Both the position numbers and the translations under genes were made by a program. 12,489 nt of DNA, taken from a virus. Taxonomy: Duplodnaviria > Heunggongvirae > Uroviricota > Caudoviricetes. Positions 6,686 to 11,274 of the stretch are shown here, piece after piece. The notes beneath the pieces are model-generated. The model saw only the letters and a program-made list of their open reading frames with translations. It did not search any database and was not told the DNA's origin. Position 1 is the stretch's first letter. Each line of letters starts with the position of its first letter. The stretch is from IMG/VR virus record IMGVR_UViG_2636415416_000016; one strand, 5' to 3'.

Positions 6686-6899
6686 GTTTCGCCTCGCCTG
6701 AATGATTCTGTAACTCATATTTGCCCAACAATTCGTCCGCTTCCTGAATAGCTTCTGGTACGCCATTGAGCAGTGACATAACCGCGCCAATCATTAACTT
6801 GTCTCTGTTGCTGGGGCTGGCCCCTTCAAGCCAGAACCCTAAAACAGTCTGAACCTGTTCGATGCGACATTGCGCTTCAATGAGCTGGATGTTGGTCAT
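6678..6899 (-). CDS. hypothetical small protein, 73 aa
   Basis: ATG at 6897-6899 in an ATGA stop-start overlap with the upstream gene; stop TAA at 6678-6680. Confidence 0.55.
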   Translation of the reverse strand: MTNIQLIEAQCRIEQVQTVLGFWLEGASPSNRDKLMIGAVMSLLNGVPEAIQEADELLGKYELQNHSGEAKHE

Positions 6900-7159
6900 T
6901 TCGCACTCTCCACATCGATTAAACTGATATCTATCAGGGAGGTAACTTTTTGTAGCCAGCTATTGATTACTGTCGCCTGTTCCCCGCCCACCGAGGGAAC
7001 AATCTCATTCATCACATGAACCAGACCTGTGCGCGCTCTGGTAAGCCGTTCAGTCGCGCAATCTGCGGGAGTGAATGTGTCTGGATATGGCTCTTCACGC
7101 CCCAGCAATGATTCAATTTCCAGCTCACACGGATGACGATAAATTAAGTTGATATTCAT
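6896..7159 (-). CDS. hypothetical small protein, 87 aa
   Basis: ATG at 7157-7159 preceded by GGGGGTG; ATGA overlap with the upstream stop. Confidence 0.55.
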   Translation of the reverse strand: MNINLIYRHPCELEIESLLGREEPYPDTFTPADCATERLTRARTGLVHVMNEIVPSVGGEQATVINSWLQKVTSLIDISLIDVESAK

Positions 7160-7350
7160 TTTTCACCCCCAAGAATTACCAGCTCGGCACGGGCATCGTT
7201 AACCAAAGATGAGCACGCTTTAATCGCATCCACGACATCAGTAGCGTCCATTTCTTCAGCCGAAAGACTGACAGCAACCAGGACAGCCGCTGCTTGCTCG
7301 ATTAATTGAAGTGCGGACGTAAGGCGAGGGGTATTAATTGAGTTATTCAT
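7156..7350 (-). CDS. hypothetical small protein, 64 aa
   Basis: ATG at 7348-7350 is preferred over the GTG at 7407 used by the ORF track. ATGAATAA overlap with the upstream stop at 7343-7345; G-rich Shine-Dalgarno-like stretch upstream. Confidence 0.5.
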   Translation of the reverse strand: MNNSINTPRLTSALQLIEQAAAVLVAVSLSAEEMDATDVVDAIKACSSLVNDARAELVILGGEK

Positions 7351-7561
7351 TGGTTGCCCCCGTTTTTCCTGGCATTTCGCCACCTTCCAGCAGGAAATGA
7401 ACGTCACGAACGGCGAGATCCAATATCGCGAGTAACGCCTTCAGTCTTTCGTCTCGTGAGGGAGAGTTGCTCACCAGAATGTCGTTAATCACTTCTGTCA
7501 GTGTGATGATCTGGCTTGTGCGTTCGAGGGGATCCATATGCACATCGTAGGTTTTAATCAT
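7343..7561 (-). CDS. hypothetical small protein, 72 aa ([17 protein letters not shown]...); in frame with, and possibly the C-terminal part of, the long 7343-8410 open frame
   Basis: ATG at 7559-7561 preceded by GGAGGTG at about 5 nt; overlaps the stop of the 7554-7748 gene as ATGATTAA. Coding-like codon usage. Confidence 0.4.
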   Translation of the reverse strand: MIKTYDVHMDPLERTSQIITLTEVINDILVSNSPSRDERLKALLAILDLAVRDVHFLLEGGEMPGKTGATNE

Positions 7562-8410
7562 GTGCCACCTCCATGCGGATACGACCAGCAAAAAAGCAGA
7601 TGTGATCGCGCACCAGAGAACGGCGAGCATCGCGTTCAGACTCGGCAGCAATATGATGAATTTTGGCGGTAATTGTCGGGCAATCGCGGCGAACTGCGGC
7701 GATAATCCAGATAAATTGCGGTTTTTGGGTAGTGGTAGTAGCCAGCATGTGGCAGCCTCCTTGTACTGGGAGTTCTTCCCACCACCGGAGCTGCGAAACT
7801 CGCTGGTGGTGGACTGAACAGAGTTCGCAGTACCGGCGTACAAGGAAACCGGCCAGCCTTTCGGCTGCCCTGTCCAGCCCACCATAATTTTGCAAGCGAC
7901 GCGGATTATAACCGCATCACTGAAAAAAGTGTGAGTCTGGCTAACGGCACAAAAAAAGACGCTCGGCGCGTCATGTGTCGCCTCGTACATTTCCGGGCTG
8001 CGAAACCCGGCACCCGTTTTATGAGGTGCCTTATAACCATAAACCGTGTTGCCGCATAACGGCAAGCTCTTTTTTATGGACTCCGAAAACTCACTATTGG
8101 AAGCACCAGATGCACAATACATCGCGCTCATTTCGTTAACGTCGCGCGTGTGGACGAAGGTTTTTGTGGAGTCACTACGCGAGCAGAGAAAGCCATCTAC
8201 GACCAGAAATTCTCTGGCGCAGCCGCCGACCTTCTCAACGCTAACACCATCGACCGTAATTTCTGACATAGTTAAGGCATTCGCTCCCACCACCAGAAAA
8301 TGATAAACTTTGCTTGTATCTGCTGTATTAATGCCAGACTTTGCTGTCATATTGCTGGATTTTGGCGACATACCAGCCAGTGAAAATATCTTCTTCTGGA
8401 CGGTTAGCAT
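7343..8410 (-). CDS. long open frame (355 codons); only the first 220 or so codons (8410 to about 7750) look coding; possibly Ash-family-like (memory only); no in-frame stop before 7343
   Basis: ATG at 8408-8410 preceded by GGAGGT at 6 nt; overlaps the upstream stop (ATGCTAA). Codon usage is good from 8410 to about 7750, poor from 7748 to 7561 where the 64-aa gene occupies another frame, then good again from 7561. The true 3' end is ambiguous. Confidence 0.45.
7554..7748 (-). CDS. small protein, 64 aa ([43 protein letters not shown]...); resembles, from memory only, Icd-like host cell division inhibitor proteins of P4-like elements
   Basis: ATG at 7746-7748 preceded by AAGGAGG (7756-7762) at 7-nt spacing. 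Codon usage in this frame is strongly E. coli-like (all Arg as CGC/CGT, Leu as CTG), whereas the overlapping long frame uses CTA/TTA/CGA/AGG/ATA here. The TTG start at 7895 used by the ORF track is rejected. Confidence 0.5.
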   Translation of the reverse strand: MLATTTTQKPQFIWIIAAVRRDCPTITAKIHHIAAESERDARRSLVRDHICFFAGRIRMEVAHD

Positions 8411-8586
8411 TTGTTAACCTCCGCGAACTCCTTCATGAAGCGCGCCAGCGGTTGTACGCATGGCGATTGATACCCGTCGCGATAAAACGTCACTCGGTTG
8501 TGAGACACGCTTTCGACAGTAACGAGTGCTCCGTGGGCATCCTTGTAGCGTTTTTGAGGTTGTGGTGTTCCTGTCGGCTTAAACAT
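8404..8586 (-). CDS. hypothetical small protein, 60 aa ([60 protein letters not shown])
   Basis: ATG at 8584-8586 preceded by GGAGGTGG; overlaps the antirepressor-like gene stop as ATGTTTAA. The longer N-terminal extension in the ORF track is rejected because it overlaps the upstream gene. Confidence 0.55.
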   Translation of the reverse strand: MFKPTGTPQPQKRYKDAHGALVTVESVSHNRVTFYRDGYQSPCVQPLARFMKEFAEVNKC

Positions 8587-11132: not shown

Positions 11133-11274
11133 ACGCCACCCCGCGCCCCTAATTCTGACGGCTATGCCAGCCCGTAGGGGTGTACGGGTTTTCGGGGATC
11201 AGCCTAGACATAGCCTATTCTTTGTTCGTCTACATAAGTCTACTACCATTGCTTAACACGGTCTATTCATACAG

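Follow-up and report, generated by a model that had tools for sequence, protein, structure and literature searches.

A long open frame crossing regulatory RNAs and an out-of-frame icd gene in a P4-related satellite island, probably kept open for ribosome transit

The DNA examined here, 12,489 nucleotides of IMG/VR virus record IMGVR_UViG_2636415416_000016 (Caudoviricetes; the whole stretch is called the window below), carries on its minus strand an open frame of 355 codons (8410-7343) that runs through two regulatory RNAs and then, out of frame, through a complete 64-aa gene, icd. We consider it probable that a P4-related satellite island has in this region a switch for immunity and anti-termination that works through RNA, and that the long frame is kept open for the transit of ribosomes, not for a folded protein. 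Directly supported by the sequences are the RNAs, the complementarity of their targets together with its covariation, three genes, the conservation of the open frame, the overlaps at its ends and an avoidance of stops that is specific to one class of related modules.

Results

The long frame and its two frame classes

The sequence-only reading of the window had offered two explanations for the long frame: three genes of which the first had lost its stop near 7745, or a 355-codon frame that crosses an embedded gene out of frame. The stop-free frame itself was confirmed by the open reading frame (ORF) listing and its translation, and the second explanation fits the comparative data. The genes concerned are the following.

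8404..8586, minus strand: DUF4222 gene, 5' of the long frame; its own stop overlaps the long-frame ATG (ATGCTAA, 8410-8404)
7343..8410, minus strand: long eta/Ash-type open frame of 355 codons; ATG 8410-8408, TAA 7345-7343; named 'ash family protein' in RefSeq
7554..7748, minus strand: icd/kil-like gene, 64 aa; ATG 7748-7746 after AAGGAGG, stop 7556-7554; the long frame is its +1 frame
7343..7561, minus strand: 72-aa gene, in the frame of the long frame; ATG 7561-7559 after GGAGG; its start overlaps the icd stop as ATGATTAA
7156..7350, minus strand: next small gene; its ATG overlaps the long-frame stop (ATGAATAA, 7350-7343)

Related loci were retrieved by means of an alignment of Icd-like proteins (A2), a sampling that took no account of the long frame; 33 loci came from one genome per species, 80 from viral contigs and 80 from metagenomes. 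A filter that required an ATG and no less than 450 nt of upstream sequence left 142 distinct modules. As shown by this set, 140 of 141 modules have one stop-free frame over the 300 nt upstream of icd, and the five remaining frames of the same 300 nt contain 3-5 stops on average. Although no part of the region varies more than the RNA stretch upstream of icd, which has indels as well, the frame stays open there. Among E. coli-type copies aligned over the whole region (89-99.8% identity), the long frame is intact in 8 of 8, one of which has an in-frame deletion of 39 nt. Because the DUF4222 stop and the long-frame start share the sequence ATGCTAA, translational coupling from DUF4222 into the long frame is suggested; consistent with this, a stop in another frame lies within -12 to +7 nt of the first long-frame ATG in 121 of 140 modules. 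With ATGCTAA at its 5' end and ATGAATAA at its 3' end, the frame is thus bounded by coupling-type overlaps on both sides.

The modules fall into two classes: in 73 the long frame enters icd in frame, as in phage P4; in 68, including the window, it enters in the +1 frame; and the one remaining, aberrant module is a contig of low coverage. What usually separates the classes is a single base, GAGGCTGCC being followed by 3 nt and the ATG in the in-frame class and by 2 nt and the ATG in the +1 class; the latter junction is found repeatedly, in many independent assemblies and in 20 spacer variants. In the in-frame class the ATG lies 142, 139 or 145 nt from the C4 RNA, and in the +1 class 141, 138 or 144 nt; the long frame is therefore fixed relative to C4. 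In the window the 2-nt spacer after GAGGCTGCC (instead of 3 nt) means that the long frame crosses icd in +1 and merges with the frame of the next gene. All 73 in-frame modules, and 67 of the 68 +1 modules, have a long frame that extends as far as the icd stop; the single exception (L146) has one ACA to ATA change.

Stops in the +1 frame of icd are avoided only where the upstream frame uses it. That frame is free of stops in 67 of 68 +1 modules compared with 16 of 73 in-frame modules, and after clustering at 95% identity in 26/26 versus 11/34 clusters (Fisher 1.2e-8, although such tests overstate independence, the modules being linked by descent and recombination). The +2 frame of icd is open in 5 of 141 modules, and no credible +2 class was found among the classified modules. 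In a tree of icd the two classes are interleaved. The avoidance can be seen at single codons: the tripeptide W-L-I is encoded with CTG ATC (L032) or TTA ATC, each giving a +1 stop, in in-frame loci and with CTT ATC in the +1 locus L026, and a further pair is ATG CCG in L005 versus ATG ACG in L016.

These results refute the idea that the first gene has recently lost its stop (TGA to TGC at 7747-7745), and a sequencing frameshift at this place is hardly credible either. The ATGA-type overlaps elsewhere in the operon had made a missing stop plausible, but a stop at the icd ATG is absent from all 141 classified modules, the only unclassified one being the low-coverage contig. The alternative state found in nature is an in-frame fusion and not a stop, half of the modules (P4 included) continuing in frame into icd, and both the recurrent junction and the intact E. 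coli-type copies speak against an accident of this one record.

On the 3' side of icd the continuation of the frame differs by lineage, and two modules end 4 or 10 nt after icd. The next gene always begins in the +1 frame, overlapping the icd stop, whereas the downstream genes themselves differ between lineages; for these reasons the extension of the long frame past icd looks like a by-product. In the PHROG profile searches the long frame matches positions 31-149 of phrog_6928 (202 positions) and Icd matches positions 138-194, so that both ORFs hit one family and the window therefore holds a frame-split Eta-type protein.

Regulatory RNAs inside the frame

The part of the long frame that lies upstream of icd coincides with a series of transcription and RNA elements, listed here from 5' to 3'.

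8036..8065, minus strand: promoter-like site TTGCCG-18 nt-TATGGT, found by eye; ends 7 nt 5' of the isrK model start
7952..8029, minus strand: isrK/seqA-type leader RNA (Rfam RF01394, 69 bits, gathering score 50)
7988-7981, minus strand: seqA-like target GTACGAGG within the isrK leader; pairs with the C4 loop, with one G-U pair
7972-7958 and 7957-7951, minus strand: isrK terminator, a GC hairpin followed by a U-tract of seven U (Rfam match and terminator scan)
7802..7889, minus strand: C4/CI-type antisense RNA (Rfam RF01695, 81.1 bits, gathering score 45)
7756..7766, minus strand: seqC-like target GTACAAGGAGG, covering the icd Shine-Dalgarno sequence

The C4 RNA has a predicted fold of -45.8 kcal/mol, and its second hairpin loop (7850-7835) contains UCCUUGUAC, to which GTACAAGGA (7766-7758), overlapping the icd Shine-Dalgarno sequence, is a perfect complement of nine bases. 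Loop and target were compared directly, since prediction of whole-RNA duplexes gave uninformative global pairings. A survey of loci L004-L201 (-125 to -50 nt from the icd ATG) revealed more than 20 types of C4 loop, nearly all with a matching complement of 8-10 nt at the icd Shine-Dalgarno sequence and most with one also in the isrK leader. The loop sequences look like immunity types. Several of them are common to both frame classes, and that many such types, each comprising a C4 loop and two targets, occur in both indicates modular exchange. Both RNAs score above the Rfam thresholds in 27 of 34 scanned related loci (26 of 33 GTDB loci and L041).

We propose, by analogy, that the site at 8065-8036 is the counterpart of the P4 promoter PLE; K113, K114, L116, V123, Y124 and G125 of the long frame, all nearly invariant in alignment A1, coincide with it. 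Separately, a perfect TATAAT occurs at 7905-7910 (minus strand), 16 nt 5' of the point where the C4 model begins, and in translation gives the conserved 'II' of the Ash motif; the site may serve C4 as a second promoter, for which no -35 partner was identified.

The stretch 8065-7750, which had been taken as coding-like, thus cannot be read as ordinary coding sequence: it contains the promoter-like site, the isrK-type RNA and the C4 RNA. Both homopolymers pointed out in it exist (plus strand A6 at 7923-7928 and A7 at 7951-7957), one base away from the positions first given, but their role as indel hazards is not borne out, the A7 run being the U-tract of the isrK terminator. The other run, T6 on the coding strand, falls within the spacer that separates isrK from C4 (…CACACTTTTTTCAG…), and no hairpin precedes it.

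The protein family by which the long frame is known maps onto the same elements. Pfam PF10554 (Phage_ASH) matches at 99.2 bits (gathering threshold 26) over aa 124-232, that is nt 8041-7715, a span that exactly comprises the -10 element, isrK, C4 and the icd ribosome-binding site; the best motif of the family, DAPSVFF, is the terminator hairpin GACGCGCCGAGCGTC with its T-run. Hence the family behind the 'ash' call is largely translated regulatory RNA and DNA.

One could go further and hold that the long frame is never translated as a unit, that it is open as a by-product of the RNA and Icd sequences, and that the 'ash family' is an annotation artefact. The RNA and promoter elements do account for the conservation of the 'domain', the product has no predicted fold (see below), and the Prokaryotic Genome Annotation Pipeline (PGAP) gives a pseudogene plus Icd for the same frame, intact, in strain 83972. 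Mere by-products would not be expected to remain in frame through a variable and indel-bearing RNA region in all but one of 141 modules, nor to purge icd of +1 stops only where the upstream frame uses them, nor to start on the stop of the preceding gene; in addition, translation of P4 eta is reported to matter in the consulted sections of PMC10111431. We judge this explanation to be distinctly improbable.

Constraint on the encoded peptides

Whether the long frame is constrained as a peptide was evaluated from synonymous:non-synonymous event counts within a close E. coli group, scored in each region's own frame and in the other two frames.

AntA gene (control): own frame 19:19; other frames 8:30 and 7:31
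72-aa gene: own frame 8:8; other frames 2:14 and 4:12
RNA region: own frame 10:10; other frames 3:17 and 6:14
N-terminal part of the long frame: own frame 23:47; other frames 19:51 and 13:57
icd overlap: 6 events in total, too few to inform

Variable-site counts over all 27 E. coli-type copies had been considered as a coding test and were rejected: the AntA control gave 135/141/136, because whole modules have been swapped, and the within-group event counts were used instead. Over icd itself, the differences per pair at codon positions 1, 2 and 3 (at ~83% identity) are 6.2/5.0/20.3 and 7.5/5.6/19.1 in the two classes, and this third-position excess in both places Icd under purifying selection. 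In contrast to Icd, the long frame shows no amino-acid constraint that would be detectable in the +1 frame over icd: at equal nucleotide identity, the identity of the +1-frame peptide is equal in the +1 and in-frame classes.

A working 355-aa product, with true dual coding over icd and with the 72-aa domain used both alone and as the C terminus of a fusion, is in our view unlikely, even though the frame encodes a conserved, annotated and widespread family. Its Pfam match is exactly that of the RNA elements, and the variable sites of the RNA region are spread evenly over codon positions (36/32/34). AlphaFold2 gave the 355-aa sequence a mean predicted local distance difference test (pLDDT) score of 31, with values <50 across residues 1-303, albeit from a shallow input alignment of 22 sequences; the 72-aa part is the sole section of the model above 50 (50-61). 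The N-terminal 123 residues are without a family match in Pfam and PHROG profile searches, vary greatly in sequence and length among genera and lie antisense to the relic of a terminase gene described below, while the part 3' of icd is variable by lineage and sometimes ends 4-10 nt past it.

Several observations nevertheless weigh against a frame kept for ribosome transit alone. The RNA region has an excess of synonymous events in the long frame and the N-terminal part a weak one, a hint that the long frame is under weak protein-level constraint, unlike that of an ordinary protein. Among modules of the +1 class, conservation of the +1-frame peptide over icd exceeds that of the +2 frame by 2-4 points; in the E. 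coli group that is closest, three amino-acid changes in Icd are silent in the long frame. The shallow alignment limits what AlphaFold2 can say, as shared descent limits the Fisher tests. Moreover, the promoter-like site at 8065-8036 is absent from the output of the consensus promoter scan, and P4 is the model from which, by analogy, both long-frame translation and its influence on termination are taken.

The icd and 72-aa genes

The 64-aa product matches NCBIfam NF033153 (phage_ICD_like, host cell division inhibitor Icd-like) at 70.4 bits (cut-off 25, 9.8e-20) and is an Icd/Kil-like protein, its inhibition of division being predicted from the family match. It is conserved at 60-95% identity throughout Enterobacterales and shares 38% identity with P4 Kil, with the motifs AAVRR and ER.ARR.L in both. 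Together with its AAGGAGG site and its third-position substitutions, these data bear out the proposal of the sequence-only reading that a separate 64-aa gene is embedded here. The separate 72-aa gene held up as well: it has a GGAGG site, its events are synonymous more often in its own frame than in the others, and it is standalone in five loci whose long frame stops at the icd stop. That reading had also held that a single long protein in orthologues, conserved in the long frame across icd, would argue against separate genes; orthologues do keep one long frame, but it is the 64-aa frame that is conserved at the protein level.

A programmed frameshift from the long frame into icd was considered and rejected. 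The sole A-rich site, CCC AAA AAC, is not an X XXY YYZ heptamer and is found in both frame classes, because it encodes T-Q-K/N-P of Icd.

A different architecture is seen in seven loci (L025, L027, L028, L029, L031, L034 and L036, from Rosenbergiella, Tatumella, Pantoea, Erwinia and an uncultured Paenochrobactrum metagenome-assembled genome), in which the Icd-like domain forms the C terminus of a long ORF with 680-1110 nt open upstream. In these loci neither C4 nor isrK gives a match that reaches the Rfam thresholds, and the domain begins with neither an ATG nor a Shine-Dalgarno sequence.

Annotation and the rest of the island

A related region occurs in about a fifth of complete E. coli genomes. 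For most E. coli copies RefSeq gives an 'ash family protein', a call that conceals both icd and the 72-aa gene, and its treatment of the copies L001, L002 and L037-L040 is inconsistent; the copy of strain 83972, entered as an ash pseudogene plus an Icd-like protein, was considered as a disrupted case and dismissed, since its frame is intact.

In some homologues of the long frame (among P0002, P0013 and P0097) the Ash stretch is joined to an AntA domain (PF08346) or to PF03354. Ahead of the promoter, the long frame appears to consist of whichever gene happens to lie upstream. Beneath this part in the window lies one further feature.

8156..8262, plus strand: relic of a P22 gp3-type small-terminase gene, antisense beneath the N-terminal part of the long frame

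Over 107 nt the relic is 85% identical to a DNA-packaging gene (Pfam GP3_package) from a prophage of E. coli NRG857C, and in tblastn the match (8e-14) covers 8081-8251 on the plus strand and is followed by stop codons. Given its antisense position, transcripts of the satellite operon would be antisense to the terS mRNA of a helper. The plus-strand ORF 8046-8303 was rejected as a gene, having no family match and not being in the gp3 frame.

The genes of the 12.5-kb window include int, AlpA, AntA, a Zn-ribbon/Toprim/DUF927 primase, DUF2824 and a P22 gp7-like gene. The hallmarks of a P4-like satellite are sid, psu, delta, epsilon and an alpha-type primase; among the proteins scanned, which were part of the window ORFs of an element that may extend past the window, none matched sid, psu or delta. 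An int-alpA RNA (Rfam RF02996, 46.7 bits, gathering score 35.8) is located at 11147-11214 on the minus strand, between int and the next gene, and is found also in L032 and L041. An 87-aa island protein (L040 2903-3166 and L041 3480-3743, homologues of window 6896-7159) is called 'nicotinic acetylcholine receptor subunit beta' in RefSeq, almost certainly a spurious transfer of a name.

Discussion

Because the mechanism we propose leans on phage P4, what is reported of that phage is given here as it stands in the consulted sections of PMC10111431, which summarise Forti et al. 1999. In P4, eta contains a constitutive internal promoter with seqA and CI, and kil is nested in it, so that Kil is a truncated Eta. 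CI pairing brings about the termination of transcripts that start at the internal promoter. The upstream late promoter is the only source of full-length Eta, which is coupled to an alpA homologue and whose translation prevents termination (PMC10111431). The consulted parts of PMC4825925 add that CI pairs with seqA and seqC and that IsrK is a structural homologue of P4 SeqA.

Transferred to the window, this would mean that in the quiescent state a constitutive promoter at about 8065-8036, within the long frame, makes a leader transcript, which ends at the isrK-type terminator or else is extended and processed into the C4/CI-type RNA. The C4 loop would pair with the leader site and with the icd ribosome-binding site, so that icd stays untranslated; the C-rich 5' part of untranslated icd would be exposed to Rho, transcription would terminate before the primase operon, and the downstream replication genes would be off. 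On induction, the upstream operon (alpA, antA, DUF4222) would be transcribed, and ribosomes would enter the 355-codon frame by coupling at ATGCTAA and cross the promoter, the terminator hairpin, C4, the icd ribosome-binding site and the whole of icd. Their passage would block hairpin formation, C4 pairing and the loading of Rho, and no termination would occur. In the variant represented by the window, the ribosomes would pass over icd in a frame other than its own and end in that of the gene that follows.

It is thus by analogy that we propose the promoter, a dependence on Rho and anti-termination through translation. Indirect support for a Rho-dependent termination that long-frame translation may relieve comes from the base composition of icd, in which C is abundant and G scarce over the first two thirds (C/G ratio 1.7-2.0 for 7770-7621), and from the class-specific avoidance of stops. 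The long frame would appear to be a natural case of an open frame that is kept for the act of translation and not for its product, and one that spans a promoter, a terminator, an antisense RNA and a whole out-of-frame gene.

A bolder version, which we put forward only tentatively and regard as the less probable outcome, is that the long frame is selected for translatability alone, in whichever frame, and that the spacer base toggles between an Icd/Kil fusion (as in P4) and a bypass of Icd with fusion to the next gene (as in the window). If so, the +1 state would uncouple anti-termination from the making of a toxic division inhibitor. The +1 frame of icd is purged of stops only in the bypass state. 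The two frame classes offer a ready-made comparative experiment, with +1 stops in icd tolerated in one and purged in the other. In the literature searched, we did not find a description of the out-of-frame class (about half of the modules), of the one-base toggle or of the class-limited purge of +1 stops, and neither the two frame classes nor the avoidance of +1 stops in icd is mentioned in the consulted sections of PMC10111431.

The closest known system is P4 itself, whose eta (orf199, the old 'ash' or 'cI' ORF) shares with the window a coupled long frame, an internal promoter, an isrK/seqA leader with its target and terminator, a C4/CI RNA, a seqC target at the ribosome-binding site and an Icd/Kil gene. 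A Rfam scan of P4 placed isrK at 8692-8615 and C4 (the CI RNA) at 8507-8420 (74.9 bits), at the same relative positions as in the window, the distance from the C4 start to the ATG being 142 nt in P4 and 141 nt in the window. The P4 ORF 8812-8168 spans both RNAs and ends "…SQEAAIMATTLTPSH…", its last 65 residues being Kil; the old P4 entry names part of this ORF "put. ash gene", which is therefore the source of the Pfam name Phage_ASH. The one P4-type feature that the window lacks is a kil gene in the eta frame: the window icd is out of frame and crossed in +1. P4 also differs in the length of eta (~199-214 codons, compared with 355 in a frame that runs on through a further gene) and in having ~25 codons before the promoter, compared with ~115 in the window. 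The rest of the island within the window, with its DUF927 primase and P22-type late genes, does not look P4-like.

In the immI region of phages P1 and P7, the loop of a C4-family RNA masks the icd ribosome-binding site, copies of the target lie upstream, and icd, which specifies a small inhibitor of cell division, is coupled in its translation to the gene that follows, ant. The window shares the C4-family RNA and its loop directed against the icd ribosome-binding site, but the gene after icd specifies a 72-aa protein instead of Ant; P1 is not known to have a long frame that runs through c4. A tblastn search of the phage collection with the window Icd found P4 only.

Gifsy-1 IsrK, which exists as a short small RNA and as a long mRNA isoform from one promoter, resembles the window in that the leader at 7952-8029 fits the isrK model. 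The short IsrK RNA activates orf45-anrP translation in trans, a role that is not implied for the window. According to the consulted parts of PMC4825925, Gifsy-1 also yields a processed RNA 3' of IsrK that may act like CI.

Finally, the 'Bro network' genes of Gram-negative phage-inducible chromosomal islands (PICI/HE-PICI, with CI and seqA homologues) are like the window in gene order, with int, alpA, an AntA/Bro zone, primase and late genes, and in having C4 and isrK matches inside a long protein-coding call, as far as the consulted sections of PMC10111431 describe them. From the same sections, the arrangement of eta, kil and CI in P4 and the presence of C4 and isrK within long 'Bro network' genes were already known, and it is to these systems that the window adds a long frame that crosses icd in +1.

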